Shown here: positions 18,501 through 59,631 of the stretch, piece by piece
Layout: each line of letters starts with the position of its first letter
How positions within the stretch are numbered: position 1 is the stretch's first letter
NCBI RefSeq assembly: GCF_036588685.1
Contig: NC_086383.1
Span: 45,074,001 to 45,138,000 of the forward strand
Length of the DNA stretch: 64,000 nucleotides
Reading direction: 5' to 3'
Source of the DNA: Mytilus trossulus
Lineage: Eukaryota
Program-made: the position numbers and the translations under genes
The notes under the pieces: model-generated
Database searches by the model: none
What the model was told of the DNA's origin: nothing
Seen by the model: only the letters and a program-made list of their open reading frames with translations

Positions 18501-30570
<12,070 letters not shown>

Positions 30571-30730
30571 GTAAGAAGATTTCACTGTTTTGTGTTAAAC
30601 ACTGTATTATTTAAATTTGGAGTAATTATTTAATATGGAATTTAACTAAATAATGAATTTCATGGATTTTACATGTCAAAGCTTGTTACCATGGAAACAA
30701 TAGACAACCAATTAAATATCACATCATGAA

Positions 30731-31410
30731 AAAAATCCCATCCAGCACACAAACCTATTGATAAATATAAATCCTGTGCGGCGCACAGACCTGTTAAAAG
30801 CTATAAATCCTGTGCGGCGCACAGACCAAGTGAAGATTATAAATCCTTTGCGGCGCACAGACCAAGTGAAGATTATAAATCCTGTGCGGCGCACAGACCA
30901 AGGGAAGATTATAAATCCTGTGCGGCGCACAGACCAAGTGAAGATTATAAATCCTGTGCGACGCACAGACCAAGTTAAGATTATAAATCCTGTGCGTCGC
31001 ACAGACCAAGTGAAGATTATAATCCTGTGCGGCGCACAGACCTGTTAAAAACTATAAATCCTGTGCGGCGCACAGACTTGTTGAAAACTATAAATCCTGT
31101 GCGATGCACAGACCTGTTAAAAACTATAAATCCTGTGCGACGCACAGACCAAGTGAAAACTGTAAATCCTCTGTGGTGCACAGACCAGGTGAAAACTGTA
31201 AATCCTCTGTGGTGCACAGACCATGTGAAAACTGTAAATCCTCTGTGGTGCACAGACCAGGTGAAAACTATAAATCATGTGTGTCGCACAGATTAAGTGT
31301 AGACTATCTATCCCGTGCGGCACACAGACCAGGTAAAGATTATAAACAATGTGTGGTGCAGACCAGATAAAGTTATAAATCCTGTTAGCTGCACAGACCA
31401 GGTGATGATA
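30731..31410. repeat. 36-bp minisatellite (about 19 units), each unit with the palindrome CTGTGCG-g-CGCACAG
   Basis: Unit ATAAATCCTGTGCGGCGCACAGACC(AAGTGAAGATT/TGTTAAAAACT); homogeneous core with degenerate edge units. Confidence 0.95.
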
Positions 31411-33349
31411 ACAAGTACTGTATGGTACATAAAATAGAAGACAATAACGTATCCTGTGAAATACACTTAGTTGTAGTTTGAAATTAATATGAATTTTCAT
31501 ACTGAGGTTGTTAAATTGTCTCATTGGCAATTTACACAGCTCTCGATTTACTTTTGAACATGAATGTTAAAATTATTTGGTTGTACTTTTAATGTACTAA
31601 ATTACAAGATGCTTCTTTGAACATAGAAAATTACAAAATGTCAGTTCTATGATATATTTATTTCATATTTGTGTATTTTACTCTTAATATATAATTTTAT
31701 TGTGTCACACGTTAAAGTTACATACAATATAGACAACTCTTACTGTAATTAGCTTGATTATAATAAATAAATGAATATGTCTTACAATAATAATGATCAG
31801 CATTAACAATTCACAGAAAATTCATTACATCATCAAACTGGTGATGTGAGTTACATAGTAATTTATTTTAGGTTAAAATGCAGATGCTGTATGATCTAAG
31901 ATATAAGCATTTGAAAATTATCTAAGGGACATAATATTCAAGACAAAATTAAGGCTGTTTATTTTTTTTCTTAATAATGACTTTGAAAATAATAATTAAC
32001 AAAACATTTATTATGTTATTAAAAACAGTAGAAATGACCACATGGTGATGTTGCATTATGAAAACACTACAAAGTAATCCAGTCTGAAAAGGGAAATGGT
32101 GAAACACTTTAAATATCTATATCTACTGCATTGAGCTAAATAAAAAGTAGCACATGGACCCCCATATTTTACTTTTGCAAAAGGCTTAAGATTGCTTCAA
32201 AGATGTTAGATCAAACAGCTTTCAATATAATAATTCTGTATGACATGACAAAATATAGAAATGTAAGGTATATCTTCATGTATTTACAGGAATCTCGATA
32301 ACAGTTTTAGAATGAAAGAAATTAATATAATGTCTATGAAAGTTAACCATAAAAACATTTTGTTCTTCTTTGCTTGTTTCAAAGTTAACATATAAAATAT
32401 TTTGTTCTTCTTTGCATATTACAGAATTGCACATTAAACTTGACTTGAAAAAAAATGTAATTGTAGGATCTTTACTGTGTGATTTGGCTTAAATTTCCAA
32501 TGACTAAGTGTTCAATACATATTATAACATTTATGACCATGACATGTAGATATATATGGAGAATGTAATGTGAGTTTAAAAATGAAAAGGAAATTACAGT
32601 ATGTATTCTACTCTTACTATATACATCCATGTTCATAGATCAAACAATTTATTGACATCTATTTAGCAAAAATAAATCTGTTTAAGACATTTGTATAAAT
32701 ACAATTATCAGCAAAGTATTTATAAATTAACTACATCTACAATGAATAAAAATATAACTGATTATTGATAAGAAATAGAAAATTTCACAATTGACATGAA
32801 GGTTAAAACTATTAACTATATATGTACTGTGAGCAAAAAGCTCCTTGTTTTGTATTTGAAACCCCAAAATCAATTTGAACATAAATTAGAATAGGGGGTG
32901 CACAATGGCATTATAACTTGAGGATTTTGAAAAAGTGTCTATAAGTTTTTGTGTGTTAGGAAGAGTTATGGATACAAAATGTGTATCCCCATCAAAGAAA
33001 ATAGTCCATAAAATTGTTATAATATGTGTCTTCTTATTTGACAATAACAATGTTCATGTTTTTGTAAAAAATAAACCCCTAAAAATAACTTTTTTTTTAA
33101 ACAAAAAAGTAGGTGTACAAAGGTATGATGAAAGAAATAATATCTGAATTGAATGGTTTTGTTGGAATATTCGTATGAAGCATTGCTAAAATTGAGACAT
33201 TCATTTGTGGACAAAATTAATTATTTCCGAAAAATGCATGAGAAAATCTAATACTATAAAGAAATGTTATAAAATAAGACTACAGGTAAATAACTTTTAA
33301 AAAAACCCAGCTTAATACAAGTTATACCTGAATAAATGTTTTCATATTT

Positions 33350-36126: not shown

Positions 36127-39100
36127 TTACTCTTCCAAAGGAAGTACTTTTGTAAGAGCTTTATCTAAAATAGATTTATGAAAATCAATAACTTTCTGTG
36201 CTTCCTCAGTAATTACAATTTCCTTTCCCTTACTTTTTATAACAATATTTATTTGAAAATTTTGAGGTGAGGATTGAGTAACAGGTGGTTGTGTATCAGC
36301 TGCTGCTGCTTCATCTATGTCCACTTGTTCTGGAGCAGAAACTTCTGACTCTTCACCATTACTACACACTGGTATTGCTGTCAGTGAGTTGCAGTAGGCA
36401 GTGAAAACTTCAGGAACAAATTTGCGTCTGATTTTTTTTTCTGAAATAAAAGATGATTATCAAACTCATTTTTTTCAAAACCAATGTCTAGATCTTATTT
36501 ACAGCTCTTCCATAAAAGCATGTAATCAACTTGCTTGCTTTGTTTGCTTGGATGTTTGCTAACAATAGGTAGGCAGAGTGTAATTTGTTGACAATAGACA
36601 AGCTGAACATATAAATCTTTTTCATCATATTGTGTTTTTTACTTTTAGTTACAATGTATAATTGTAAGGACTCCACTTAACTATAACAGATTTATATGTG
36701 TGATGAATGTGCAAGAAATAAAATTATTTGTAATTCATATATTTTCTCTTTGATCCTACTGCCTAATATATTCAAGTATCAACATAGTATACTGGCTGTA
36801 TCACTGAAAATATCAGGCAATACAGTGTGTGACGTCATAATTACCGATAAACTGATTAACAGGTAGTTTCGTTTTTGATAATGACGGGCTCGTCTAGATA
36901 TTCCACATGATATAGTCAGTATCAAAAATGAAACTATCTATTGTTCTATATTTAGCTGTGTTTTTTTTTCTTGACGCAACAGTTAGTTTGAGTACAGTTT
37001 CTCAATTCAATCCAAACGTCAAATTTTTTATTATTATATGAATATTTTTTTTAGATAGCTCCTTTGTTTTATACATGTTTATTATATACTTAGCATTGAT
37101 ATAACAGCTTTTGCGTATGTGAAATGAGCAGAAGTTCACAAGCCATAATTTCACACTTGGGCTTATAACCCATATCAGGTGCATCTCATGCAATAACCCC
37201 ATAATAGTGCCTCTCATGCAAGTGACAATATCACCAGATGTTTGCTCTCCCTTGATGATCATGATTATTTCAAACAGGTTTGACTGAACATATGATTCCT
37301 ATATTTAACAAGAGGCTGTCACAACGACAGCAAACTGGATTGATTAATTAATATTTATTTGTGTCCTGGCAATATCACAAGAACCATAACTGATGAATGG
37401 TGAAAGTGAAAATCGTCAATATCAAATTTGGCCTCCATTTTGTAGTCAGTATCAACATATTAAAATTTGAAAAGCTTAGATTGAATGGTTCATGTGTAAA
37501 TGCAACAACGTGAATGGAAACATCATTTTACGATCTTTCAAGAACCATAACTCCTGAATGGTAAAAGTCAAAATCCTCATTATTGAACTCGAACTCTATT
37601 TTGTCATCGGTAACAACATATTAAAATTTTAAAAGCTTTGGTTGAACGGTTCATGAGTTAATGCACGGACACAACTGGAAACTCCATTTTTCAATCATTC
37701 AAGAACCATAACTCCTGAACGGTAAAAGTCAAAATTGCCATTATTGAACTTGACCTTCATTTAGTTGTCAGTTACAACATATTAAAATTTTAAAGCTTTG
37801 GTTGAATGGTTCATGAGTTAATGCACGGACAACATTTGATTGCCGCCCACTCGCCGTACATCCCCAAATCAATAACCGACATTTTTGTCACAAAAATCAG
37901 GTTTAAAATAGTTATGTTCTTACCAACTAGTTCTTCAATTTTACTTGACACCTCAGGGTATGTTTTGTAAGCCTCTTCCCAGGTGTTTATCTTAACTGTC
38001 TGACATAAAAATGTCTGTAAGCTTTTTCGAGCCTTCAACCTATCGACAGTTCCAGCTGCTTTTTCCAAACCCTCTTCGGCAGCAAGGCTTAAGTACGAAA
38101 ATGTGGCCTCCTCAGAAAGGCCTTGTAAAGCCCGAAATAGCTGTAACAGAAAATGGTTTTAAAAGTAATTTAATAACAAAATTGAATAATTCAGATGATT
38201 TAAATAAAAGTTATATGGTGTAGTAAATTCTTTACATAGAGTGTCATGTGGTAACCAGGTTACCCCTATGGTTTACTAAGGGTTTGTAAATTTCATAGTG
38301 GTTCATGACGTCACTTCTATTGATGTTATTGTGTTTTATACTGCAATCAGCTAGTTAACTGTACAGATAAAGCTATACGTATAAACGTTACCTTTATACG
38401 TCAATGACCCCAACTGACCTATTAGCCCCGCCTCCTTATTGTATTTCATCAACAACATCACGTCACGACCATGACAACGTAAAGTAACAATGGTCAAACT
38501 TATTCAATTTAAACTTTTATGTCTTCAAATTGGTTATTTATATATCATGTTTATCAAATGTTATTAATTAAGTTCATTTTACCTTTCTAATTCCTTAATA
38601 CGCCAATGTCTAGCCACCTGGACTAGGCTCATAGGGAAATACCCCAAAATGGTACCTCAAGAGGGAAATTCCAAACACTTTTTTTAACAATTTTTGTTAC
38701 ATGTTTTTTTCATTTTTCATTTTTTTTTTCGATTTCAGTATAAAAACAATATACGTATAGTGTCTTGAAATATGAAATTTATTTGTATTTGGCACGAAAC
38801 GGGAAAATGCTCGGTAGAACATCGCATTTTCCCGTTTCTAAGCCTCATGCAAATAAATTTCATATTTCAAGGCACTATACGTATATTGTCTAATTATTGT
38901 TTATTTTTCCACAAAAGTCACCATCAATCAGTGCACAGTAGACATATTTTCTTGTTATTTATACTGTTGGCAGTATTTCATTCCTTTTTTATTTCGCATA
39001 CCTTGTTTCAGCTTGATAAAGAAATCAAAGTGTAAAACCATGAACAGTTGGGGTAGATTTCAGATTATATAAAAAAAAATACCATGTCTCAAATTAAATC

Positions 39101-42100
39101 ATTGACACATCATACCTTTGTTAGACTTTGCCAATATGATTTATATACATTTATAGAATGTACAGAAAATAAGTAACAACCTTAGACAGTGCAAATCTAA
39201 TCCAGCAACTTTTGTGAAAGGCACAAACTTACTGATTTTGTTAGAAAATAAACATATATTTTACAAACCTTTTGTGGAATATTCTTATGACATCCCTGCT
39301 TAGCTTCAAATTTTTTCACTAAACTAGTAAAATAAACAAAACATCTCTCAGAGTATGACGCCATGCTTTTAATAGTACTGCAGCTGTCTTCAGTTAAGTT
39401 CTGGAGGAAAAAATAAATATATAACATTAAATGCCAATGTAGAATTAACAAATTTTACATTCATCCTAAAATTTGCTACAAAGGCTATTTCAGGTAAATA
39501 CTTCATAAAACTAAGTAGGAGTTATTTGATCCAACTGATTCTAGTTACATATTGTACACATTCATTTTTTATATAATTAAGGATGTAAGCTTTCTCGTTT
39601 GAATTGTTTTACGTTCCCATATCGGGGTCTTTTATAGGTGACAATGCGGTAAGGGCTCTGCTCATTGTTGAAGGATGTACTGTGACCGATAGTTTTTAAT
39701 GTATGTGTCATTTTGGTCTTTTTTGGGCAGTTGTTTCATTGGCAATCATAACACATGTTCTTTTTTATATGACCCTAAATATTATGATCACTCTTGTTTG
39801 AAATACTGGAAGATTTACATGGACCATGTTCTATACACTCTTCAAAACTTTGACTTCTTGGGAATTTGTCACCATATTTAATATCACTCATGACATTTAT
39901 CTCATAGTTAAACAGTTCATTTTTTTGACATTTGTGTTTCATGTAAAAATAGCTACTGTGTTATATGTGTTTGCCTTGATGTACAAATATTCAAATTTGA
40001 TTATGAAAATTGAAATAACTATATCATTCCGTGCTGGGTATATTCCAATCTTGACATGGACAGGCATATCATTTGTCAACATTTTACACCTTGCATATCC
40101 TCGATATAAATATATTGAAAATATACTGTCTATTCCCATGTCGAATGGACATAAATCACAGTATGATACAAGTTAAACTATAAGCTTCTGCTCACTGATG
40201 ATACCTCCGCCACAAGTGGATAATTTAGTCTAAAAATAGGTATTAGTGGAAGCAGGAACAGGAAGTTTGAATCTGAAACTGATCACAGTGCATAGCTGAC
40301 TTATATAAAGATAATTTGTCTCATATTCATCTTTTTTTCTCTCTCTCTAAAATGTTGGTGAAAAATTTCAACGAGTGACCGAACAACACATTTATTTACA
40401 AATGCTCAAAGCACAGGAGTTAATTATCAGTGTTGTTCTGTCACAAGTTGAATATTTTTCGATTTATGATTTCTTTAATTAGTTTTTCTTTTGATTACAT
40501 TGTCTAATGATTTTTTTTTTAAAGAAATTTATGTAAAAACATGTAAGGAACTATATCTTTTTTCTATGCATTCATAATTTGTTATAATCCGCAGTTATCT
40601 ACAACACCTATTGTTGTATGACATTAGAGAGGGAAATAACCACCTCTATTTCGCATGTGAAATTATCGGTTTTCAATGAATGACCGAACAACACTTTTAT
40701 TTACGAATGTTGAAGTGCATGTCAGAGTTAATTATCAGTGTTTTTCAGTCACAAGTTAAATATTTTTTCGATATTTGATTTCTTTAATTAGTTTTTCTTT
40801 TGATTACATTGTCTAATGATTTTTTTTTTTAGAAATTTATGTAGAAAATGTAAGGAACTATTATAACTTTCTACTACACATTGACAATTTGTTTTCATCT
40901 GACGTTATTGACCTCTTGACAACGCCTATAGTTGTATGACGTCAGAGAGTGAAATAACCATGCTTATTTTGCATGTGAAATTATCGGTTTTTATGTAATT
41001 GGGAAATCAATGTAATTCATTGCAACCAATGTAATAATATTTGTTAATGATTTTCTTCTTCATTGTATGATACGTGTGTTTCTTTTAGTGTTGGTCCAGT
41101 ACTGTAAATTATTTATTATGCACTTCAAACTTTGGACTGATACTATATGAAGTTCAATTTTTCTATGCTTTTACGGAATAAGAAATCTAAAAATATGTTG
41201 ATTAAAAGAGTGAAATAGGTTTTTGGTAAAACGACTTACTTGAAATGTCACTGGCAAAGTTGACATTTGAAAGTTATGTCTGTTGCCTAACAGTCTTGCT
41301 TCCTCTGGTGTTAAACCTACATACACTGACACATCTAATTCTCTGCAAAGGAATTACTAAATAAATAATTAACATCCAATATTTGTGAGCTAGGCATATG
41401 AATTTAGTCTTGCTCAAGTTATGCATGCACACTCTTTGAGTATTTTTCTATATTTTAAGAAAACTTTTGTGTGTAAAAATCTAAAAACCCATATATCTTA
41501 TTTTATTCAAATTTCAGCTATATTCATATGCTCTGGCCAAAAGTATCAGTCACCTGCATTTGTAAATGTTAGATCTGTAAATTTGCTTTCCAAATTTATG
41601 GTTCTTCCCTCTCCGGGTTTCCAACCCATGCTACTGTGATATTGTGACACCAAATCGCCTGCACTGCAGCCGTATATTATATGTTATTCAGGTCTCAGAC
41701 AGGGTATATACTGTGACATTCCCGGCTTTGAGTTTATATCCCCTGAGCCAAAGGGGAAGGGGATATTAGCCCTAAGCCGGGAATGTCACAGTATATACCC
41801 TTTCTGAGACCTGAATTACACATATATTACGGATAACCACTGACTTAATGCTATTCCAGTGCAGGTATTTATTGAAAACACATATATATAAGTTGAAAAA
41901 CCCAACCTTATATGTTCGGTATACGTGAAGGATTTTCTAATTTGCTGTGATCATAATTTTATCGTGTATGTAATAATTTATAATAACACTTTTAACATTA
42001 AATTTAAGTATTAAAAGTGTAAATTGCGTGTTTTTGTATCAAAAATGTATTATTGACTGAAGCACGTCATTATTTTTTCTGTGAATCTCTGATAGTCTGA

Positions 42101-45100
42101 TAGCTTTTGACTACGTCACAATATAGTAACTTGTGTTATGATGATGTTTTTGAGGTTCCAATCAGGGATAAAAACGTTGTATATACCCTGGCAGTTTCCT
42201 GAATATATACTGACCATCTCTGTGTTGTTATCCAATCACAAACCTTGACACATTTGTAATCAGTAATATATATATATATATATGTAAAAAATACCATAAT
42301 TAAAAACATTCATAAATTACATGGCTACTGTTAAAGTGATAAAACCAATTTACCCAATTCCTTTAATTCCTTCTTCTTGTAATCCCTTGATAGCAGCCAC
42401 AAGGTGATTACCACCAAGCAAGTAAAGAGTAAAATCAGTAGATTTTATTTCTGAATTACTCTCTAGGAGTTGTCCTCTAAATTTGTCAGGATCAGAACAC
42501 TGTAATAAATGTTAATATGCATATCAACATTTTCTCATTATTTTTATTGTGTATATGACAGATTAAGTAGTAGAAAAGAATTTTGTATTTTGAAACAGTC
42601 TAGTGTATTTTAGTTATATTTTGTACTTATTTAAAAAAAAAACTTAACCATTATAGAGTGTAAATTATTGTAAATTTTAATATACAATCTGCAATCCTGG
42701 AACTATGTACAGAGAGATCAATACACTTACGTATACACTCTCAGGCTTTACAATGATTGTTGTTTTTGGCCCTGAATTCATTAACTGTTGGACCCATAAC
42801 CCCGGAAATAAATCCCAACCTTCTACTTGTGGTATTAAACATTGTGGTATAATTTTAGAGCAATCAAAATACTTATACACAAAGCATCATCCTGAATCTT
42901 GAAAATCACTTAAACTAAAGTTATTGTCCAGAAACCAATGTTTCTTTGGACGACACAGATGATGACATTATATCATTATATTTTGTATATATTGTAATTG
43001 ATCTCAGTTTTGTAGTAATAAGAATTGTTTTTGAATTAAATAACAATTAGAGTGGGCAACCGAAAATTAGATTACAGAAGCAAACAAAAAATTCAGCAAT
43101 TTTTCAATTTGTAAATGGGGCATATCTCTAGAACGGCAAAAGTGTTGTGACACCACTAAAATTCTAAATTTTTTCTGTGTTTTCTGGTAATAAGCACTGT
43201 GTTTTAGTTTTACAACAATATGGTTAAGGCAAACTGAAGTTGGAGATCATAAACAAAATTTAGGTTATACAAACTGACAAGGATAAAACTTATTGCTACA
43301 GCAAGACATTAATAATAATAATAAGATTAACGGTACCAAAACGTATGCATTAAAAGTACAAGGACATGTATATAAAAAAATGTACACTTATTCTTGATAA
43401 GTTTATACTGATTATTAATCAACTGTTATACATTACACGCCTGGAGTGCAAACCCTAAATATTAATACAGTTTTTGTTTCAAATTTTAGTATTTAAAAGT
43501 ACCTGTGATGGGTCCACTAGCACAGGCAGATGTGTCCCCTGTGGGATTGCTGCTTGCTCACGTATCTTATTTCTTATCTCCACAACCCAGTCCTCTCTTA
43601 CTGTCCTGCATAAATATTCCTGTGGTGGGCTAGAAAGGGTCTGAGCATCAACAGTAAATTCACCTATTAAAGCACAAATAATTATTTGATAATGACTTAC
43701 AATAAATTGCATGTATTACAACATTTCTTTGATTTACACCTTCTGATAATGATAAGAATCAATTGCATGCTTCTTAATATGTCCACAGTGATATTATAAA
43801 GTCAATTAAAAAAGCTTTATAAAATTGAGAATGGAATTATATAATAAAATAAATACCATTTTATATGCAGATCACAAAATCCAGGCAAATATATTTTTGT
43901 ACATTATCAACTTATCATGCTTTATATAATGATTAAAAAAATACTTGTAATTGTCTTCAATTTTAGATAATTTAATGAAATACAATTACATACATGAATA
44001 TAAAACTGTAAGAACCAAATTATTTTTAAAATTCCTACTGTTCATATGCTGTAAAAATGTTCAAAATTTCAAATAAATTACCAATCAATTTATCATCTTC
44101 AACAGATTTACCAAAACTGGGCTCAATATGGGTTACTTCTGGCAGTCTGTTCTCTTTTTCTTTGGTTATTTTTCTGGAGGGTTTGGCCTGAAAACTTTTG
44201 ATTACTTCAATGGAACCTGTATATTTGTCTTTGCCCAGTTTAAGCCCCTTCTTCTGACCAATGAAATAAATCTACAAAAAAAGAATACATATGCTTATCT
44301 TGATATGTTACATGCACATTATAGAATACAGAATGGAATCAGGGAATGTGTCAATTATGTATATATACCATTATTACTGACTTTTATTTTCAATAATCAT
44401 AATTTATAACACAATTATAAATGTTTCGAAGGTGATGGTACCCAAATTGCACCTATTTTGACAGTTTTTTCACCTACGTTTTTTTATGATCAAGAAAAAA
44501 TTTCCATTCTGTGTTTATTTTGTAGCCCTATCCTTCTTTACTGTCTAGGTACACCAGTTTGATTTTTAATCTATATTGAGTCATTAAAAATTGGGGTTGA
44601 ATCAACCTCCAAACTATTCATGATTTTGTAATGAGGAGTACCCAAATTGCATCTATGCCTAAATTCACATAGTCAAAAGTCTAATAACCGAGCTTCTGTT
44701 TAATTTCTTTAAAATATTTTGAACAATTGGATATTAGTCCATGCTTACTCTTCATATTTTACTAAATGGATTCTTATAATACATTGTCTTTGCTAATTTT
44801 AAAAAAGATGACGTTTTCGTACATTTTGCTTTTACAGTTAACATCCATCTGTTGATAAATACTGTGAACGTTTTGTGTATATCTGTAAATATGTTTACCT
44901 ATGTTGAGTATCAAATCATAAAAATAAAAATTGTTTAGTCTCTAGAAAATCTTGTAAGATTTCCGTTGCTATTCTTTTCTGAATAGGTGCAATTTGGATA
45001 CCCTTATATTATTGGTCTCTGTGTGTCATTCAAATGCTATATCCATCAAGTATACAATAATATAATTAATGGGAGGGTTATGTATATCTTTCGATATTTA

Positions 45101-45767
45101 TATACCTTCTAAAAATAGAACTCCATAATAAACACATGTAAAAATACTGGTTGCTTTATACGATGTAGTCCGGTAACTCCGCCCACATAGGGCTTTGATC
45201 TGTATATATATCTTTATTCTTTATTATATAAAAATAGCTACATATATATGTAGAGTGATCATATTATCATCAAATTCTTTAACTTTTGTACATCATTAAG
45301 GGTGTTGTCTTCTTGTTAATAAAGAATGCAAATCAACTAAATGTATGTGCGAACAATAATTTTATGTTTACGCCTACTCGGAATTTTTGTAAGTTTAATT
45401 TTAACTTTTGACACATGCGCAGATCTAATTGTTGTCTAACAAGACGACATTCATTTCGACATCTAAAAAGAAGCGATGCCCTGTACTTTAAAATCAGATT
45501 ATAAATCGGACATTGAACATTTTTTAAAGTTAAATAGGATAAAAATATACTTTAATATTGTGAGAATATTGATAGTTGGGAGCCGATAGTTGTAAATGTA
45601 GCGAACTCGCAAGTTCGTGGGCTAAAGCCGATTGATTTCTAATAAATTCTTACCAAGTAGACAAATTTACTCTCTTTGACGGATTTAACCTTCGGATATT
45701 TCTTTCCATTTTCATCAACTGCTTGTTTGCCACCAATTTTTAAAACCCCTGCGTCTATCTTCCACAT
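36127..45767 (-). CDS. ParB/sulfiredoxin-like domain protein, 8 exons, about 458 aa (putative transposon accessory gene)
   Basis: Exons 45767-45654 (MWKIDAG...FVYL), 44271-44082, 43663-43503 (LSSPPQEYLCRTVREDWVVEIRNKI...LPVLVDP), 42499-42354 (FTLYLLGGNHLVAAIKGL), 41342-41240 (LDVSVYVGLTPEEARLLGNRHN...VTFQ), 39400-39269, 38140-37924 (LFRALQGL...TWEEAYKTYP), 36440-36127 (stop). All introns are GT-AG with matching phases and there is no internal stop (1377 nt). R..REDWV / PVLV / LLGGNH..AA / VY.GLT.EEA..L...HN follows the ParB N-terminal (Srx) fold pattern. Confidence 0.8.
37307..37905 (-). mobile_element. HINE-type element with internal repeats of about 160 bp
   Basis: AACAAGAGGCTGTC...GACAGC hairpin end; repeated CAAGAACCATAACT units. 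Confidence 0.65.
44435..45005. mobile_element. MITE in intron 1 of the ParB-like gene
   Basis: GTACCCAAATTGCACCTATT / AATAGGTGCAATTTGGATAC inverted termini. Confidence 0.7.
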
Positions 45768-46079: not shown

Positions 46080-49000
46080 ATGGCAGATTCTGATGATTAT
46101 TTCAATTCGTTAGAAGATGTAATAGGTAAGGCTTGGTTCCCAAAAAGCATTTACACATTTAAAATACTGATGTTTCAAATAAGAATAATGATATGGCCAG
46201 TTGAGACAGTTTACAATATTTCCGTGTAAGTGTGTAACATTTGATACCCGATTCACCGTAAATCGACAACTTTCAAGGACTGAAAGTTCCAATATTTTCC
46301 TACAAAACTTCAGTAAATAAAAATTGCTCCTGCCTGTTACAGCTACAACAAGTTTTTCTCATCCATACAGTTAAATTTTCCATCAAAATTTACAATGACA
46401 TACATGTAATTATTAAAATCAAACTTGGACAGAAGCTTCTAAGTCCTCTTAATACTGACAAAAGATAGTATCTAGAGGAAAATATGAAAGAAGCGAAAAA
46501 CCTCAGTTACAAATTTTTATTGAAAAAATTGAGGTTGTTGCACCATAGCTCTGGATAAATTTTTCACCAAATAAAAACTAAATAGCAAGAATTATTTGCT
46601 TATTTAGGTTAAAATACTCAAAGTCAATGTGCTGATTTGAAATAGTTTAACAAAACCCTGCTAAAGTGACCACATGTATAAAACAAAACATAGAAAAAAA
46701 CCTATAAGCCACACTATCTTCACATGTACAAAAGAGTTAAATTTTCCACGTACAGAAACAATAAAAAAAAAAAGTGCTTTGAAACATAAAAAATATATGT
46801 ATCTAACTCCTTAATTTTTTAATTCAATGAAATGAAGGCTTACGAATTGTTTGTATCTGTTATTTACATTTAATGTCTTGCATATTATAATTGATAGAGA
46901 TAAACTGTGAACAGCAAAATTGTTCAGCAAAGTAATATCTACAAAAAAGTCAAAATGACTCTGAAACAAAAGCATTTACAGCAATCTGAAATTGGAAAAA
47001 AAATTTCATCACTTCAAGTTCTATCTGCTCAGAATTTTAAGACACATTATACCACCTGTTGATGGGTTGCTGCCCAAAATTGAAAATTTATGTAAACTTT
47101 ACAAGTTTTTGGTTAATTTCTTGAAAATAATGTTGAGTAAAGAGACCGCATATGCCCTGCAGGGCACAGCTTTATATGACTGCAAAGGTAAAAATGATAA
47201 ACCCCACCCCCTTTTTTTATTTTTAGCTCCCCTTCTAATTTCTAATGGAGTTGGCAACAATAAATACTCATTTTAATACATCATGAGTTATAAAATGTTA
47301 TATGAGGGTGGTAAAGGGGGGTACTGAACACGGAAATACATGAAATAAAAATCATAAAAACGTAGCACGAAAAATAAAAATCGAGAGAAACGAAGCACGA
47401 GAAATAAAATCGTAAATATTAAGATTGATTGTTGGTTGCTTAACGTCCAGTGTAAATATTAAGAAAAAAAGTACCAGCAGTTATTACTCAGCCGTTCTTG
47501 GAGTTCATGTAGATATTGTTAATGGACATACTGTAAAGACCTTGTGGTCACCTTTACACATCTGCTTTGAATAAATATTATTAGAATGGTAACAATATAC
47601 ATCAATTTCTATTATATTACACAAGTTTCAAAAAGTACAATAACTCACTGACTTTGAGTTAGTTTCAATTTACTTTTTCATCAACTTCTTTATGCGGAAA
47701 AAGGCAAGAACGAGAAATTAGGAGCACCGACACGAAACACAGAAAATAAATAAGGGGAAATACAAAGCATGCACATCGAACCAAACACGGAAACATGCGA
47801 AATAAAAAGGCTGAAAACGTTGCACGTAAATAACCCTTTAACACTCTCTTATACAGTCATGTTTAAAAGTAATATTAATTAATACAGAAACTTATAAAAA
47901 TAAATTTACAGCTACATGTACACATCTCAAGAAAGTCTGTTATGACCAAGCTGTCTAACAGTCAACATACATAAAAGATCAGTAATACAAGATCAAGAAA
48001 ATAAGATTATTGTCATGAATAAAATTGAAAATGGAAATGGGTAATTTGTCAAAGAGACAACAACCCGACCATAAATCAGACAAGACAGAAGGCCGCCAAT
48101 GGGTCTTGGTTGCAGCAAGTAACTCCAGCATCCAGAAGCATCCTTAAGCTGACCCATAAACAAATATATATACTAGTTCAGTGATAATGGACGTCATACG
48201 AAACTCCGAATTATACACAAAAAATAAAATTAAAAATCATACAAGACTAACAAGCTTTTGACTTGGGACAGGCACAGAAATGATGCAGGGTTAAACATTT
48301 TTTTTTTTAGATCTTGACCTTCCCGCTGTACCTCTTGACTATTTTTGTCTTCAATGTTAGTGTTCTTGATGTTTGATTTGCCCATAGACCAACTTGGGTG
48401 TCATGGCCTGCTTTTTTTTTTATATTTCCTCCTTATCCACTCACCCTGGAAATTAATTGGTAGCTCTTTATTCACATACAAATGTCAAAATCAATGTAAT
48501 ATTTTGTTCTGCCCCTTTATGGATATATTGTATATTGATTGATGCTTTAATCTGTTCAATATTTCTTTAGATTCAGATTATGTAAATTTCACAGATACAT
48601 GGATGATGGAAATGAATAGGCCTGATGAAAGTGATAATGGTGAAGGTAATAAATTTGATTAAGGATTTTGATTGTTTAAGAGGGGGTACTGCTTTATTCA
48701 TGCTTCAGTGATTCCCTATATGATCAGCCAAAGTTTTGCCAAAAAAGGGGGTCTAGGGCCTCCTGGAAAATCCTCTAAATCCACCTCTGTAAATTTTTGA
48801 ATATGTAAAACTGATTGATTATGAACATTTTTTTTTAGCCCCAAACTCAATATCACAAATTATATTTTGGTTTGAATATTCAATTACCTGATTTGACGAT
48901 ATTGTGATATGAATGCATAAAAAAACAAATTAAGTCGTGCACAGAAGACTTATTATATTATATGGTGATAAATTTTACTTTCTCGATGTCCAGCTTAGAT

Positions 49001-52000
49001 GAGGCCATTTAAATATTATAAAAATGAGAAATCTTTAAGCTAAAGGATGTCAATTCCAGTCAAACGTTGTTAGCTTAACAGTACATAGCTACAGTTGATT
49101 TCAAAACCATACAGAAGCCGACAATGACAACATTGTTGGGTTGATGTTTAGACGAGTTGTATATACATGTATATGAGGATACTTTTTATATGGCGTTCCA
49201 AATATCGTTTCGATCCCTAACATCACTGAAGAGACATTTAATGTCGAAATCCTGATCTGGTGTACTAAAATATATTGACACTGTATGTTTGTGGCATAAG
49301 ATCGCGGCCACAAGTTTAAAAAGTGTTTCTGTTTAGTATTAAATTTATTTTAAGATCCATTTGGTTACATCTTGTGATCAATTTTATTTGGCAATTGTCA
49401 ATGGCAGTAAGCAGGGTTAAGAACATCAGTTGTTCGACCGGTTAGTCAAATGCGTTTTGTTTAAATATGCTTTTTCACTTTTTGGGTCTTTTGGAAAATG
49501 TTGTTTGTGCAATTTAGACTCGTATATATATATATATATATACAGATATAGAAGGATGTGGTATGAGTGCCAATGAGACAACTCTCCATCCAAATAAAAA
49601 TTCATAAAAGTAAACCATTGTAGGTCAAGGTACAGCCTTCAACAAGGAGGCTTGGCTCACACAGAACAACAAGCTATAAAGGGCCACAAAAAATACTAGT
49701 GATAAACCATTTAAACAGGAAAACCAACAGTCTTATTGCTTAAAAAAATGAAAAATGCATTTGTTCAAGATTGGATCAACATTATTTTTTACCAGTCACT
49801 CATTTCATATAATTTATAAAATGTATGCTATAGGTACAAATGTATAGTTATGTTTTAATCTGTTCAATAATTCTTTAGATTCAGATTATGAAAATATCAC
49901 AGATACATGTATGATGGAAATGAATAGTCCGGATGAAAGTGATAATGGTGAAGGTAATAAATTTAAGGTGGCTTAGGGTGTCTTAATAAAAACTGACAGA
50001 ATTTTTTGATAACTTGTCAAAATGAAGCTTTTATCATGCTTTTTTCAAATTGTCAGATTTTGAATAGCTTATTAATGGAAAATCAAATTTTGTGTGATAA
50101 AAAGAAAACGTTCTATAAGAACTTTAAGACAAAATGTGAGAATATTGCTCTTATAACATGCTTTCAAATAAGTAAAAGAAAAATGGGGTCACTGAACTTG
50201 TTTTCTTGCTACATATTGAAATAGGTAAATTTATAACACTTTCTATTGTAAAAATTACCTCATCGGAGTTATTTCCCCTTATTTGTCAAATTTAGAAAAA
50301 ATCTAATGAAACAGAAACAAGGTGTTTTTGAAAATTACAACTGCAATTATGTTTAAACACACAATTTTCTATATTCATATCAAAAGTCTTGTACAAAAAT
50401 TACATACAACTCTCAAAATTTGCACATTTCACCAAATATATAGACTAAAGATATCTGCTTATTCAAAATCGAAGATGGAGGAAGACACCCAAGCCTTATT
50501 AATTAATGATTTTGATTGTATAAGTAGCAAAAACTTAAAGTTTGTAGCTCCCAATTGTAATATTATAAGATTTATTCCAATCACAAATATCATCCCCAAA
50601 TGCATGATTTCCTTGGATTATGCTTTCATGCATATTACACTTACTACTGTATAACAATTTATACTGCAACCAGTTGTTTGTTTCCTAAATATAGTAATAC
50701 AGCTATATTTTCTGCAATGAGAATTTTATCATGCAACACTTTTCCACAATCAGGGGTTCCTAAAGGATGAAAATAAGTTTGAATTTAGTTTTACAATTTT
50801 AATAGCTATCATTGTATTAATTTAAGTTGCAGTACAAAAACAATATAAAGTCAATTTAAAACAAATATAAATTAACTTAGAGATACTCCTGCTTGCATGG
50901 TTACAATTTCTAAAGTAAATTTCTTAAAATTAATTTACTATTTTGAATTAAGTGAATTTATTTATTTTTCAAATTTCAGACAGCTATCAAGATACAGATG
51001 ATTCTGAGCTAGAATGCGAGTCAGGAGATGAAGTTGCGGAAAATATTGAAGCTGCAGGTAAATACTTTAAAGATGTGTATCTAAGGTTCTATGTTACACA
51101 ATTTAATAGAAAAAAAACAAGGTGTTCGCCTTTTTACTGATTTTTTGTCAAGCCTGCAACTTTTTTTGCAGAAAGCTCGACATAGGGATAGTGATATGGT
51201 GAGGGCAGCAGTGGTGTTAGCTAACAGTCTTAAAAGCTTTATATTTTAGAAGGTGGAAGACCTGGATGCTTTATACAAGTTTAATTTGACCTTGACCTCA
51301 TATTTATGGTTCATTGCTTAGTGTTTAGTACATGTATTTGTGTTTTAGTCTTCATGTTATCATGGTAATGTTTGCATTTCAGCACATAGAAAAAGAGGAA
51401 GACCATTTGGGTCTTCTGTTGACTGTCATCTGAATTATCCTGGAGATGAAACAATGGAAACTCCTGTGAGAAAAAGTAAGTAGCATGTATATATAATTTT
51501 ATATGTTCAGCCCTATGTCAACTTGGATGCAGACCATTAATCACCCCCCTTTATTGCATGTCTACCCATTATCACACACAAAAATTCTTCGGCGGTTCCA
51601 AAATGGAAACAGTCATTACAGCATTTTTCTCAATAAAATCACAGTCTTCACGTAGAACCAAAATTTAAAGGCCCAACAGCCCAGGCTTTTAAAATTGCTC
51701 TTGTGCCTGTAAAAATCAGTATACGTGTTATCAAATTGTTAGAAGGTACAAGGGATGTGACACTAAATTCATCTGTGTGTCCAATGTAAGACATTCTATG
51801 TTTGTGCTTATAATTGCTGGATGCTTGCCTAAGTGACATAAACCAATCACCGTTTTGCATGCACTTAAATATTCAGAATCTTTCAAAGGCAACTCATTGA
51901 CCCACTCAATATATTTTGATAAAATATTATATGAAAGTAAAAGTGTATCACATGTTTGTGTGCTTGAAGCGAGATGATTATTTCTGATGTTTTTAAAGGG

Positions 52001-55000
52001 AGATAATCCAATTAATGGGTTTTATGTTGTCACTTTGGGCTGTCACTCAGTAAGCTCATTTTCATTCCATTTATTTACATTTTGCAGAAAGAAGAAGCCT
52101 GAAAGCACTGACATCGTTCGCATACATGGTTTGCTGTTCAATGCTTTGCATATCAGGATTGGACATTATGACCGCAGAGACAGTTCGAAATAATTTTCAA
52201 TCCCTGTCTACAAATGAAAGAAGTCAGTTTATTCTGAATTGGCTACAAAGCCATTCTAGGTATATATTCATTACTGCACAATTTTCATCTCTCATCATGT
52301 TTATATTTCAATATAAGAAGATGTGAAATGATTGCCATTCAAAATATCAGCAATTACAATTAGGAGATAACTGTATTGTAATTTAAGCTCCGACGGCACC
52401 TACCGTCACTGATGAGTCTTTTGTAAATGAAATGCGCCTCTGGCATATATAAATTTTAGACCGTTGGTTTTCCCGTTTGAATGGTTTTACACTAGTAATT
52501 TTGGGGCCCTTTAAAGCTTGTTGTTCGGTGTGAGCCAAGGCTCTGTGTTGAAAGCCGTACATTGACCTATAATTTTTTAATTTTTTTTAAATTGTTATTT
52601 GGATGGAGAGTTGTCTCATTGGCACTCACACCAAATCTTCCTATATCTATTTATAATGACAAAAATATCTTTAACTTATGACAACATAAAAATGTAAATG
52701 AATACTGATTAAATAAAACATGTTCTTATTCTCTTTTAGGATCAATGAGCTTACTTGCAAGTATGAGTTCAAGTACCTGATAGGTACATCTTCAGTGTGT
52801 CTATCAGCCTTTCTACTGGTTCTTGGAATCCCCAAATCAACGTACTATAGTATTCAGAAAAAGTTTTATGGTAAATATATAATTGCATCACACAACTAAA
52901 ATTGAATATGCTTTCATTTTTCTGATTGCTAGCAGTTATATATTTAAGCCCACTTATGGTATTTCATCCATTCTAGGAACACATCTGTTTCACTGAGACA
53001 GAATTTTGTAGATTCAAACTTCTATTAAAGAAGAAGTGAAAAAAAAAATCCAAGCTGTCAACATAACAACAGTTTCAGAATCATAAACCCAAATTGTTTT
53101 AACAACATTAACCTTTCAAGTATTAAATACACACAGGTATTTTTTCTGGTAAAAAAAAATGTTATGTATGAACATATTTGAAGTTTCTTGTGTCTGGCTA
53201 CATGAGTAATATAATTCTTATCGTCCATTCCATTCAATTATAGATGGATCAGTTGTCATCAATAAAATTGGTAATCGTCTTGGTAGAATGAAAGCTTCTA
53301 GCCAAAGTGCAATGACATGGTTGCATATGTATGCAATCCAGTTTGGTGAGAAATTACCCAATCAGGAGAAAATACACCTACCACCATGTGTGACCAAAAA
53401 GTCTATTTACAGTGAGATGGTTGAATACCAACATGACAAAGGGGAACCAGAAGTTATTTCCATGTCACATTTTATGTTACTCTGGAGAACATGTTTGTGT
53501 CATATTGCCATCCCTAAGGTAACAAATCCATTTTGCCAAAAATAAAATATTGTTTGTTTCCCCAATTCCAACCGACCCAGCAAAATCGGTCCTACTCAAA
53601 CAAATTTATTGTCCAAACTTAGTCAAATATTATTTTATTCATTTCTGAATTTCAGGCTTACCAGATCAACCGGCTAAATTCCAGCTTTTAGGAAAAAATA
53701 AAATTATTTCCCTACCTACCTACCCACACCTGGCTTCGCAGGGTCAGCATTTGGGAAACAAACAATATATTAATTTAGGCCTAAATTAATGACCTGAATC
53801 ATTATTTGTATTTAATTCTTATAAAACTTGGAAATTGGGGAATACATCGACATTAAAAAAATGAAGTTATAAGTTTTAAAAGGCCAAATTGTTTATTGAA
53901 GTGATAACCTAGGAAAGAAAGTCTGAATTAGAAATCACAAACAAGTACATTTTTATGTTGATATACAAACAAAATCATAACAAGAATTAACATCCCATCA
54001 ACGACCTCATTTAACCCTGTGTGTCAGCAGCACTAATTTTGATGAAAAACTTGTTAAATAATAAGAATTTTTTTATTCTTGGATCATATATATTTTAAAA
54101 CTACCATATATCAAGGTTCAGAAAATAGAAATTGCCTTTGAACTGTAAATAAAGTTTTTTTTACGTTTCCATGTGATAGATGCAGACACCGTAGAGCCTT
54201 CAATAGTGAGCCTATTTACAGAGTTGATTTATTTTTCAGGTATCAAGATTTTCCAAATGCAATAAATGCATCAAAATAAAGACAAAACTTTCTTCAACAA
54301 GAAGCAAGACAAAAAAGCAAGAACTACAAAGAAGGAGAGAAAAACACTTAAAACAACAAAAGTTAGTGTTGTAAACTTTTCATTATTTCTTAATAATATT
54401 AAAATTTTCTCTTGAAATCTTTAAGTTATTTCATAGATAAGATGGTTCATTCTCTTTGGTAACATTTATGATTTATAAATCATGTACATATACTTGTTTT
54501 GTAAATATATAAACACACTTATTTCTCAGATCAAATGTTTCAATCAATTTTCAAACTGATTTCATTATAACAAGGCACTTAACCCTGGCTTTAATTTTAT
54601 TCATAACATAACTGGAATTATTTAGATTTAAAATCACTTCTTTCCAAATGTGAAAATAAGTTAATAATTGTCAAGAAACTTGCTGCTTTGAAGAAAAAAA
54701 ATTGATATATTACAATTTAATTGAACTTCAAAGTCGTTGTATGTTTAATATATTGATATAATGGTTTTTTTTGGTTTTTTTTATGATTACACAATATATT
54801 TTGCTATTATCAATTGAATTACTACACATGTGGACATTTACATATAAATGTCAATTACTTTAAATAGATTTTATCAAAAATCAATCAATTAGGATTACAA
54901 TTATCTCATCCCTTCTTCATTTCCTTTTATTTATTCTTTCAGCATGGAAAGAAGGAAATATTACAAGCATATTCAGAAAGCTAAAGAACAACCGGAAAAA

Positions 55001-58000
55001 TATTTATCTGTCATAATTGACTCAATGGACCAAAGCAAAACTCAGCTTCCACACTTCCTGTATAAATCAAAGTTTACAGGTAATATGTGGAAGCTGAGGG
55101 TCCACTTAATTGGGGTTTTGCTTCATGGAATAAGCACATATGGATTTTTTGACTTATTTGAATATCCTCACTCAGCAAATCTCACAATCTCAACATTGAT
55201 AAACATATTGGCAGGTTTGGAAGACATCCCACCTGTCCTTTACCTGCAAATGGACAATTGTTACAGGGAAAATAAGAACAGGTTATTTACTTTTATTTAA
55301 CTCTATGACCATTGATTGAAAGAATGTTACAATATAACAAAATTTAAGAAAACAATACATAAAAAATCCTGAAATTTGTGCTTTGTGAATTTTATTCATG
55401 AAATCTTCAATGAAATTTATCAATTTAAAGTTTGAAAATATGATCTGTCATTGAAAAAGCACTTTTTAAAATACAGAAATGCTCAATAAAAAAATGCAAC
55501 TTGTATTTTTAATTAAAAAGAGATAATGAACCTATCGGAAGATATTTTGTTGAGTTCAAATACTGTTCGATGTAGGAATTTATTTCTTATGTTTATTGAT
55601 ATCAAATATATGTATTACAGATTTGTCTTTGGATTCCTTTCATTGTTAGTGGAGCTGGGTGTATTTAAAAAAGTTAAAGTGTCATTCCTTATGGTAGGAC
55701 ATACACATGAAGACGTTGACCAGGTATTTTCAAGGTACGTAATATATAACATAATGCTAAAATTACCTTTTTGCTATCCTTGACCAGCAAAGTAAGACCT
55801 ACAAATAAGTTAACATGACCAAAATGTCAGTCAACCCCTTAAGGAGTTATTGCCCTTTATAGTCAAATTTTATCAACTTTTCTTCTTTTTTTGTAACTTG
55901 AACAAAAATCTTCTTCTCTGAAACTGCATGGCCAAATTTAACAAAACTTTGCCACAATTATCATAGTGGTATATAGTTTAAAAGATGTGTTCCATGACCC
56001 TGCCTACCAAACAAAATGGCTGACATGATTAAAATTAGAACATAGTGGTAAAATGCAGTTTTTGATTTATATCTTTGAAACTAAGACATTTAGGGCAAAA
56101 CTTTCAAGATTTAAATGTCCATCAGAATAAGATCTATCCCCTCACAAATGATGAATCTGACAACTTGTTGTTGGGTTGCTGCCCTAAAATTGGTAATTTT
56201 TAGGAAATTTTGCAGTTTTTGGTTCATATCTTGAATACTTTTAAAGATAAGATAAGCTGTAAACAGCAATAACGTTAGCAAAGTAAGATATACAAATAAG
56301 TCAGCATGATCAAAATTGTTAGAGGACCCCTTAAGGAGTTATTGCCCTTTATAGTCAACACCTTTTCTTCATTTTTGTAACTTGTACTAAATCTTCTTTT
56401 CTATAACTATGGGCCAAATTTACCCAAACTTGGCCACAATTATTACTAGGGTATCTATTTAAAAAAGTGTTAAATGACCCCACCTACCAACCATGATGAC
56501 TGACATCAGTAAATACAAGTGAGCAACACAGGCTCTTGAGAGCCTCCACTGGACGTTAAGCAACCAACAATCAATCAATCATTCTAATGCAACAAAGTTT
56601 GTAACGTTCATTTTGATTGGATAACGTCACTTTCTTACATGGCATCAATTGACAATTGATGCTATGGGACGTACGCGCAAGCGCAGACGGCATATGACAG
56701 ATTTTAAATACATGTTTTAACGTTGTTTTCTCTCAGTTTCATTAGAATGGAGATAACAATATTGTATTTTAAGCTCCGACGGCATCAATTTGGGATTTGA
56801 TGGTCGCAAATACCCGTTTACTGTCTCCGCTAACGCGTCGCCAGTAAACTTAATTTGCGACCATCAAATCCCCAATTGATGCCGTCGGAGCTTAAAATAC
56901 AATACAGTTATCTCCTAAATCTTGAGAGCCTCTAGTTAAGATTAGAATATGAAAAGTAAATAAAGGCACTACAGACACCAAGTGATGGCAATAACTCACA
57001 CAAACCTTTAAGGCTAAGGTCAGAAAACACAAATGTTAACTGTTTTACACATGTCTGTCATTCTGTCCATCTGTTTTATGAATACTTTGACACATTTTTC
57101 TGAGCAACTGAATAATAAGCTTTTCTAAAATTTGATATCAATGTTTATATGAGTGAGCTAGACTGTAATGCTTTTTTCAGATTGACTAAACAGCAACTTC
57201 CTGTTTAACAAACACTAAAAATTTCTACACATGACCAAAAAAAAAGTGAACTATGTTCTGATGTATGGTTGCCGTGTTTTCTTCATGCTACAATTCTGTC
57301 TTAATTTAATTGCAGATTTTCTTCCTGGTTGGCAAGACAGGCAGTTCTTACATTGCCCAAACTTATGAGAGCTTTTGAGTCATGCACTACTCCAAATCCA
57401 GTGTCAGTTCAAACATCAAAAGTGTGGGATATAGCTGGCTGGATATCTCAGTATCTGAACAAAATGTGTAACCATTCATACCCCCACATATTTAAGATAA
57501 TCAAGAAAGATGAGAAAACAAGACTGTTTTACAAAAAATGGTCAACTGACAAGGTATAATTAAATACTTTCAAATACTAACAAATTATGTAATAAATGAA
57601 TTAGTTATTTATTTTGTTTGAATGTTATGAATCAGTTATTTATTTTGTTTGAATGTAATGATTTGATTTAAAGTACTTGGAATCCATCAGTGTAGAATCT
57701 TTTGCTGTTTGTCAACCACAGCATTTTCATTTCAACATGTATCCTCAGTGATGGAGGATCCAAGACTTGAAAAGGGGTGCCCACTACTTTTATTTATCCT
57801 GTAAGCAGTAAGGGGAATAAATAGGGGCATCCCGTACAAACTTTGTATAACACTGTTTATGAACTTTTAGAAAATACACTTTCATCATTCTATTTATTTG
57901 GACCAACATATGTGAAAGATCTGTAATATTTAAAAATATTCTGTCAAGACAGAATGCCTTAATTTTCAGGAAACCTGGAGCACTTTTAATCTTATAATTG

Positions 58001-59099
58001 TAGAAGTTACATGTCAATACATTCAGTAATTTAAAAACGTCTGCTTCCTTATTAGCTCACCTGGCCTAAAAGGCCATGTGAGCTTTTCTCATCACTTGGC
58101 GTCCGTCGTCGTCGTTAACAATTTTTCAAACATCTTCTCCTCTGAAACTTAGCATGATTGTTCCTTAGTATATTCTGCACAAAGCATGCAAAGTGTGTGC
58201 TTGGATTTTTGATCCGTCAAAAAACATGGCCGCCGTTACTTAAAATAGAACATAGGGGTCAAATGCAGTTTTTGGCCTATATCTTAAAAACGAAAGCATT
58301 TAGAGCAAATCTTACATGAAGTAAAAATGTTCATTAGGTCAATATCTATCAGCCCTGAAATTTTCAGATGAATCAAACAACCCATTGTTGGGTTGCTGCC
58401 ACTTAATTGGTAATTTTAAGGAAATGTTGCAGTTTTTGGTCATTATCTTGAATATTATTATAGATAAAGATAAACTGTAAACAGCAAAAATTATCAGCAA
58501 AGTAAGATCTACAAAAAGTCAGCATGACCAAAATTGTCAATTGACCCCTTAAGGGGTTATTGTCCTTTAATGACAATTTTTCACAATTTATTCATCATAT
58601 TTGCTACCTTTAAAAAATCTTCTCCTCTAAAACTACTCAACCAAATTCAACCAAACTTCAACTGAATGATCAGTAGGGTGTATAAAATAAAATTTGTGCT
58701 TCAAAGAACATTTAAATTAATTGAAAAGCCAAAATAATCATTGATGAGAGATTTAACCAAAAAAAATCAGGTGAACGATTCAGGCTCTTGAGAGCCTCTT
58801 GTATTATGGTAACTGTCATCCAATCAGAACCCTTGATACACAAATTGCTTTAAAATTATTTACATACTGTAACAAAATGTGGTTAAAAATGTCAAATATA
58901 TTTCAGACTTGGCAAGAACCAGAGGAGCAGCTTCTACTTAGTGTTCCCACAGACTCTCCAAAAATAATAATTCCTGACTACAACAAAATAGACCTGGCCA
59001 AGCTAAAAAACGATATCACTGGTTCATTTTCATATTTCAAGAGAGAGGAAGATAAAAAGTGGTGGACTGATTTTTTCACAGATCTTTCTAGTAATAATG
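46080..59099 (+). CDS. Spliced DDD/E transposase-like protein (DUF7869 / Sola1-like), at least 13 exons and 650 aa, 3' incomplete
   Basis: Exons 46080-46125 (MADSDDYF..), 48571-48645, 49879-49953, 50980-51057, 51383-51475 (AT-hook-like RKRGRP), 52088-52259 (CCSMLC), 52740-52870 (VCLSAF...GIPKSTYY), 53244-53518, 54240-54361 (FSKCNKC...H), 54943-55281 (IIDSMDQSK ... LYLQMDNCYRENKNR), 55621-55734 (SFLMVGHTHEDVDQVFSR), 57316-57553, 58907-59099. All phases are consistent with no stop over 1951 nt, and the candidate acidic triad is intact. Confidence 0.88.
56749..56915. repeat. Long hairpin (about 167 bp) ending a short non-autonomous element; same architecture at 25389-25557, 36857-36944, 38746-38889 and 41672-41830
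   Basis: GGAGATAAC..ATTGTATTTTAAGCTCCGACGGCATCAATT / AATTGATGCCGTCGGAGCTTAAAATACAAT..GTTATCTCC. Confidence 0.85.
58048..58802 (+). mobile_element. HINE-type element (related partial copy at about 55780-56550)
   Basis: TTAGCTCACCTGGCC...(CGT)n...CAGGTGAACGATTCAGGCTCTTGAGAGCCTCTTGT; shares internal sequence with 55780-56550. Confidence 0.7.

Positions 59100-59598: not shown

Positions 59599-59631
<33 letters not shown>

Follow-up and report, generated by a model that had tools for sequence, protein, structure and literature searches.

A candidate ParB-like accessory protein of a probable giant Sola1-like transposon in the mussel Mytilus trossulus

A stretch of 64,000 nucleotides from Mytilus trossulus (assembly GCF_036588685.1, contig NC_086383.1, positions 45,074,001 to 45,138,000 of the forward strand; the window in what follows) contains a spliced gene for a protein with a predicted ParB fold, which stands head-to-head with a DUF7869 transposase-like gene. 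A probable role for the protein is that of a DNA-binding accessory factor to a Sola1-like cut-and-paste transposon, a giant one that exceeds 33 kb when its nested inserts are counted, and it would likely bind a palindrome array that likely belongs to that element. That the gene is transposon cargo is the firmest part of this reading and appears highly probable, and binding of the protein to the 36-bp array is slightly favoured; the element boundaries, the binding and the function are what we infer. Coordinates of the features are collected in Table 1.

The initial annotation, made from the letters alone, described a hidden gene of eight exons. Eight minus-strand exons are indeed present, read from 45767 to 36127, with all introns of the GT..AG type and a single frame of 458 residues that holds every motif quoted there, but the gene has nine exons in its intact form and is not hidden, close copies being annotated in NCBI as uncharacterized proteins. 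Exon 3 matches Mytilus proteins at 96–100% identity, and exon 6 aside the window protein equals the M. trossulus protein P0007 at 458 of 458 aligned residues. Splicing was checked in contigs from four of 24 listed runs, whose RNA nature is presumed and which are termed RNA-like here. Six of the seven junctions of the window gene appear in these contigs: 2–3, 3–4, 4–5, 6–7 and 7–8 in three of the four runs (X1, X5 and X9, from three studies), and 1–2 in run X1 only, while run X2 has none of them and carries no evidential weight. At junction 5–6 the matches listed for X1, X5 and X9 have 105 extra nucleotides, and the annotated Mytilus proteins P0002, P0004, P0005, P0006 and P0007 have 35 extra residues at the same place, so the gene is one of nine exons and the window copy is without exon 6, the loss being in frame. 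As the joints seen are among the matches listed, a transcript of the exon-less form may exist too. The 35-residue peptide is unmatched in the window: its self score is 174, and the best local scores reached are 35 across the whole window and 23 within intron 5. Two tiny candidate exons, at 39002–39011 and 38583–38617, were rejected since transcripts splice 39269 straight to 38140.

The missing exon might also be a collapse in the assembly of a copy that is in reality intact. The window protein is the same as P0007 at all other residues, and the intron in question holds repeats and a tandem duplication (40366–40991, 83% identical), both of which would suit a collapse. Against this, the window contains no N, other broken copies exist, and the window transposase differs at residue 521 from P0080, the M. 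trossulus transposase-like protein described below, and is therefore not the same locus sequence, so that a collapse is considered rather unlikely and a true deletion is preferred. Downstream of the gene, at 33464–35686, the last exon's 3' end is amplified as tandem repeats of 105, 138 and 391 bp, and a Mytilus-like protein made of repeats of this type (P0011) was recovered in the homolog search. RNA-like contigs overlie parts of this region, and those over 33000–33493 reach up to about 1.3 kb further left; if these leftward contigs are collinear, the 3' untranslated region of the ParB-like gene would come near the array.

Fold comparisons were made on a predicted model of the intact sister copy P0007. 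The model from the 55-row family alignment has a mean predicted local distance difference test score (pLDDT) of 82.9, whereas an earlier one from a seven-row alignment had 34.5 and was unusable. Foldseek against the PDB gives ten matches at E<=0.001, every one of them to Noc, ParB or KorB, with sulfiredoxins at E 0.1–0.4, and the ParB/Srx fold proposed in the initial annotation is thereby upheld in the model. The best match in VIA-align is pNOB8 ParB (5k5d; Z 9.4, root-mean-square deviation 4.4, 208 aligned, residues 93–358), the second is PadC (Z 8.8), and KorB, Srx, SerK, Atu1540, SbnI and Spo0J come next with Z 6.1–7.4; ranks 1–9 are all ParB/Srx-fold chains, or near them by title. The alignment to 1vz0 comprises 163 residues, and many of the top viral matches are ParB/Spo0J.

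After the N-domain the model is helical. Isolated DNA-binding domains of ParB, KorB and SopB align at about residues 235–355 with Z 3.6–4.5, which is weak and within background when taken alone, and contiguous with the N-domain match. This region is partly deleted in the window copy, where the loss of exon 6 (residues 239–273) removes a pair of helices from the place where the helical domain of the model begins. A DNA-binding helical region had been suggested to extend from FRALQGL to WEEAYKTYP, and the former lies inside the match, the latter outside. An extra helical segment is found at about 355–411, and the C-terminal hairpin and helix, with a putative role in dimerisation, are conserved and confidently modelled. 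The predicted fold is thus that of ParB, an N-domain with a ParB-type helical DNA-binding domain, and because this helical domain follows the N-domain the protein should be closer to ParB, Noc and KorB than to Srx. Sulfiredoxins are single-domain proteins with a GCHR motif containing the catalytic Cys; a sulfiredoxin identity was rejected, as an Asn is found at the Cys position in 41 of 48 rows and the model is multidomain.

A full HMMER scan with P0002 as query gave 66 proteins at E<=0.001, and the named sources among 20 looked up are Mytilus, Mercenaria, Ruditapes, Mya, Owenia, Tubulanus, Amphiura, Anneissia and Lytechinus. The family alignment has 55 rows; most of the excluded sequences are Mytilus copies that are nearly identical, short fragments or chimeric gene models. 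A tree of the 26 longer rows has at least four deep lineages within Mytilus and several long branches. At the Box II position the window protein reads GGNH, for which the initial annotation considered a decaying copy. The motif is present in 38 of the 48 rows covering it, in bivalves, an annelid, a nemertean and echinoderms (four animal phyla), though the motif counts are biased upward by homologs being found with a query bearing GGNH. GGNH is the family consensus and therefore not decay of the window copy; decay as its cause was rejected, and the real sign of decay is the absence of exon 6. The missing arginine had been read correctly: column 188, which matches the arginine of GxxR, has L, I, M or V in 45 of 47 rows and R in one, with the Box II register taken from the GxxR definition in PMC12704722 and not from a printed structural alignment. 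An arginine stands one position after column 188 in 17 of 48 rows.

Other residues likely to line the pocket are kept, R121 in 35 of 36 rows, H226 in 41 of 46 and N227 in 44 of 47. With R121, N186, H187, H226 and N227 conserved and the Box II arginine replaced throughout the family, the alignment suggests that the nucleotide pocket may have been rebuilt rather than lost. By its model the protein is a member of the ParB/Srx fold, yet it is not a canonical ParB, having no GxxR. The same five residues could instead form a His/Asn-rich active site, the N-domain then being a kinase, a phosphatase or a nuclease, dependent on metal or nucleotide and comparable to Srx, SerK and SbnI, and acting on element DNA or chromatin. 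All three occur among the structural neighbours, and ParB-fold proteins bind ATP, GTP or CTP according to the available part of PMC12704722. These three, as far as the accessible sources describe them, lack the helical DNA-binding and C-terminal domains, whereas P0007 aligns to ParB across both N- and helical domains, with the residue numbers given above for 5k5d and 1vz0, and the best Foldseek matches are clamps; an enzymatic N-domain is accordingly held improbable, and a DNA-binding protein of the ParB type is preferred.

The initial annotation noted neither the transposase-like gene nor the palindrome array and the break in MCM3, and the absence of exon 6 also escaped it. The two genes of the head-to-head pair have their ATGs 312 bp apart, and this spacer is likely a bidirectional promoter. 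P0080 (792 aa) is 100% identical to one window exon, and of its first 625 residues all but three (622) can be placed on window exons, with two gaps at exon junctions and the one substitution at residue 521; residues 626–792 are not in the window. It carries DUF7869 (E 2.4e-68), a domain that no paper found by us names. Motifs resembling D-D-E lie close to D357, D435 and E474, and we read them as a putative DDE triad of the Sola1 type. The second exon of the transposase is doubled (48546–48644 and 49854–49952, plus strand), the upstream copy being more diverged. P0080 (LOC134720824) and the intact P0007 (LOC134720826) are encoded on the same 91.4-Mb contig, and judging from the locus numbers they would be adjacent in this sister copy. 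P0005, identical at 456 of 458 residues, is located on an 82.3-Mb contig, and truncated or exon-less copies on record are P0001 (two records), P0003 and the window copy. The family homolog P0033, a divergent Mytilus paralog, is a gene model fused to another DUF7869 protein that is 58% identical to P0080, and it has a second match in the window (54243–55741, plus strand), within the transposase-like gene.

A pair of this kind might be a domesticated or immobile host locus, spread by segmental duplication and with a host role for the protein. The gene is intron-rich and transcribed and has open frames in several Mytilus species, and the ends of the element are not seen, all of which would agree with a host locus. 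Near-identical copies on different contigs (91.4 and 82.3 Mb), the truncated or exon-less copies, several deep lineages in one genus and the placement inside MCM3 and a nested long interspersed nuclear element (LINE) argue against it, and it is regarded as very unlikely, the gene being better seen as transposon cargo. In M. coruscus the gene model P0073 joins a tnp2/EnSpm-like frame (Pfam E 0.018, below the cut-off) to a ParB-like last exon, hinting that the ParB-like gene may be carried by a second transposon superfamily too, as are the algal PAG genes. Metagenome contigs gave two short loci, L001 and L002 (3.2 and 2.5 kb), which are single exons and too short for neighbours to be seen, and no matches to the array pattern; in viral contigs no loci were found for the transposase or for two sub-alignments.

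To the left of the pair, ten exons of the host gene MCM3 are seen, the last one encoding the Walker A motif. This is the only one of the seven MCM motifs searched that is present in the window, and since motifs of later MCM3 exons are absent from it the element likely sits in that MCM3 intron. The end of MCM3 at 30570 implies either an intron of more than 33 kb or a broken MCM3 copy. About 160 bp past the MCM3 donor starts the tandem array, in which each palindrome consists of two 7-bp arms and one free central base. A search with the palindrome gave 13 matches where 0.02 are expected, and shuffling the unit 20000 times yields such a palindrome in 97 cases. Within units 1–11 two of 154 arm positions vary, compared with four of 11 at the centre and 31 of 219 flank positions. 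In three distal units, at 31169–31255, both CpG sites of the palindrome carry the same C-to-T changes, a pattern expected of methylation decay. The array is likely a candidate binding-site array at the left end of the element, to which we infer that it belongs.

A number of observations weigh against a giant Sola1-like element with a ParB-like protein that binds this array. When 16 units are scored the conservation of the arms fades (15 of 224 positions varying, against 45 of 324 in the flanks), and the array has been read in one genomic copy, its link to the element being a putative one. Sola1 elements have terminal inverted repeats and an AWWT target duplication (PMC3845634), and neither is demonstrable here, the right end lying outside the window; within the window the left end has no terminal inverted repeat partner, and two unpaired AWWT-G candidates are located at 30615 and 30633. 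Curated bivalve Sola1 elements average 5.4 kb, far below the size of this one (PMC10294476). P0033 carries its ParB-like part and its transposase on a single strand instead of head-to-head. Pfam detects no ParB or Srx family in eight single exon frames, in P0002, P0006 and P0007 or in the 55 family members, a profile search of PDB sequences with the family was blank and did not find ParB, and the structural scores are moderate, with Z mostly below 8 and 10–17% identity. Swapping out the Box II arginine abolished nucleoside triphosphate binding in the proteins tested, as stated in the part of PMC12704722 open to us, which makes the standard cytidine triphosphate (CTP) switch doubtful here; going by the motif, the classical CTP switch in its known form is unlikely.

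Short tandem arrays in bivalves are moreover often carried by unrelated Helentron MITEs (miniature inverted-repeat transposable elements), the HINE-carried arrays being described as common in the accessible portion of PMC7492417. The gene could accordingly be transposon cargo and the array have nothing to do with it, being a minisatellite or Helentron MITE of the MCM3 intron; the protein would then bind other sites or bind without sequence preference. No second copy ties the array to the gene, and the palindrome has no match elsewhere in the window. On the other hand, the palindrome is the best-kept part of the repeat unit in units 1–11, the location of the array beyond the 3' end of the ParB-like gene fits PAG3 of Bostrychia as described in the available text (see below), and no clear inverted-repeat pair surrounds the array except one AT-rich pair of 21 nt with 81% identity. 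An unrelated array is thus a less likely but serious alternative, and an array that belongs to the element and is bound by its ParB-like protein is preferred.

Table 1. Features of the M. trossulus window, in window positions.
Feature	Position	Strand	Remarks
Host MCM3 exons	22702..30570	+	ten exons seen, last is the Walker A exon
36-bp tandem array	30733..31429	.	17 units, each with a 15-bp palindrome, 9 perfect
ParB-like gene, last exon	36127..36440	-	acidic linker, conserved C-terminal hairpin and helix; stop 36127-36129
ParB-like gene, exon 8 (7th in window copy)	37924..38140	-	helical domain
ParB-like gene, exon 7 of intact copies (6th in window copy)	39269..39400	-	helical domain
Intron without the 105-nt exon 6 of intact copies	39401..41239	-	1839 bp
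ParB-like gene, exon 5	41240..41342	-	Box III-like HN motif; N-domain end
ParB-like gene, exon 4	42354..42499	-	GGNH motif at putative Box II position
ParB-like gene, exon 3	43503..43663	-	ParB N-domain start; near-invariant R121, Box I-like helix, LPVL strand
ParB-like gene, exon 2	44082..44271	-	small N-terminal region and basic linker
ParB-like gene, exon 1	45654..45767	-	ATG at 45767; joint to exon 2 in run X1
Spacer between both start codons	45768..46079	.	312 bp
Multi-exon DUF7869 transposase-like gene	46080..59098	+	P0080 residues 1-625 map here
LINE	59599..63759	-	endonuclease, reverse transcriptase and zinc finger frame 59959-63759, 1266 codons; poly-A tail 59599-59639

The LINE comes after the last mapped transposase exon and is likely nested in the element. 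Short hairpin-like inverted repeats, likely MITEs, are found in introns at 41670–41832, 38746–38889, 56749–56915 and 25380–25566. Broken LINE-like reverse transcriptase frames are located at 11148–12780 (plus strand) and 17542–18201 (minus strand), and a TRIM-like single-frame gene of 576 aa with B-box, coiled-coil and NHL regions at 1569–3299 (plus strand).

In the proposed working of the element both genes would be co-expressed from the 312-bp spacer. The nine-exon protein, in its intact form, would use the ParB-type helical domain to recognise the array's 15-bp palindromes, much as parS is recognised by ParB. Molecules next to one another could then join through their N-domains and build a nucleoprotein patch on the end of their own element, and this patch might help the element escape silencing, or organise far-apart ends for the transposase. 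As exon 6 makes up the first third of the helical domain, the product of the window copy likely binds DNA poorly and would depend on the sister copies. A bolder and rather doubtful extension is that stand-alone, arginine-less ParB proteins load at such arrays on giant transposons of marine invertebrates as a minimal ParB–parS system without ParA, spreading or bridging on chromatin; the outcome would be protection of the element against silencing, or the joining of ends that lie tens of kilobases from each other. If true, this would be a bacterial-style DNA clamp operating on an animal chromosome. No ParA was noticed among the frames of the window, in which no search aimed at ParA was made.

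Among known systems, the bacterial clamps ParB, Noc, KorB and SopB resemble the mussel protein in the predicted order of N-domain, helical domain and C-terminal element and in the tandem palindromes nearby, the 36-bp array being one that we take to resemble sopC. The mussel protein differs from them in having no GxxR arginine, a spliced eukaryotic gene, an identity of 10–17% and the extra helical segment, and offers a way to learn how a ParB pocket functions when the Box II arginine is absent. Two of the 55 family members match PHROG ParB families, weakly, and tblastn against phage genomes gave no match. Srx, SerK and SbnI share the ParB/Srx core fold, but the mussel protein is without a Cys at the Srx position, has an additional domain of DNA-binding type and is found in a mobile-element context; in the part available of a survey of ParB folds, Srx is the main eukaryotic form (PMC12704722). 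Among the language-model look-alikes of P0007 residues 95–250 are a cnidarian cluster and DUF3723 clusters of fungal Starships, the N-domain resembling DUF3723 at 0.94–0.95, which is a lead only. DUF3723 is a conserved accessory gene of giant fungal Starships according to the accessible part of bioRxiv 10.1101/2021.12.13.472469; Starships are tyrosine-recombinase elements, however, and none of the 55 members has a Pfam DUF3723 match. The look-alikes are suggestive of a wider set of ParB-like accessory genes in giant eukaryotic elements.

The closest designs are found in algae. Sola1-1_Ec32 of Ectocarpus, as presented in the available sections of PMC12477816, is a giant Sola1 of 21.5 kb whose ParB-like accessory gene and transposase stand on opposite strands, and nested insertions are common in such elements, but its protein is a fusion of ParB with an N4C/N6A methyltransferase (1104 aa) in a brown alga. 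The intact mussel protein has 493 aa and no enzyme domain by Pfam or fold search, comes from an animal, and is likened to it by design. In the Plavaka elements of Bostrychia the accessory gene PAG3 is likewise ParB-like and adjoins tandem inverted-repeat arrays, and its product is proposed to bind its own element in the portion seen of bioRxiv 10.1101/2025.02.11.637652; the differences there are an EnSpm/Plavaka transposase, a 2-oxoglutarate (2OG) oxygenase fusion, three accessory genes and a red algal host. Neither the methyltransferase nor the 2OG-oxygenase fusion of the algal proteins is detected in P0002, P0006 and P0007, which have no Pfam match. No paper on ParB-like genes in animal transposons was found in a search that left most subscription journals, Repbase and the supplements of the algal papers outside, and in the literature searched the design of a ParB-like transposon accessory gene has so far been found described in algae only, there fused to a DNA-modifying enzyme. 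The mussel locus accounts for multi-copy 'uncharacterized' mussel genes as likely transposon cargo, and by placing a stand-alone, transcribed animal ParB-like gene beside a candidate 15-bp site it allows self-recognition of the ParB/parS type by eukaryotic transposons to be tested directly.

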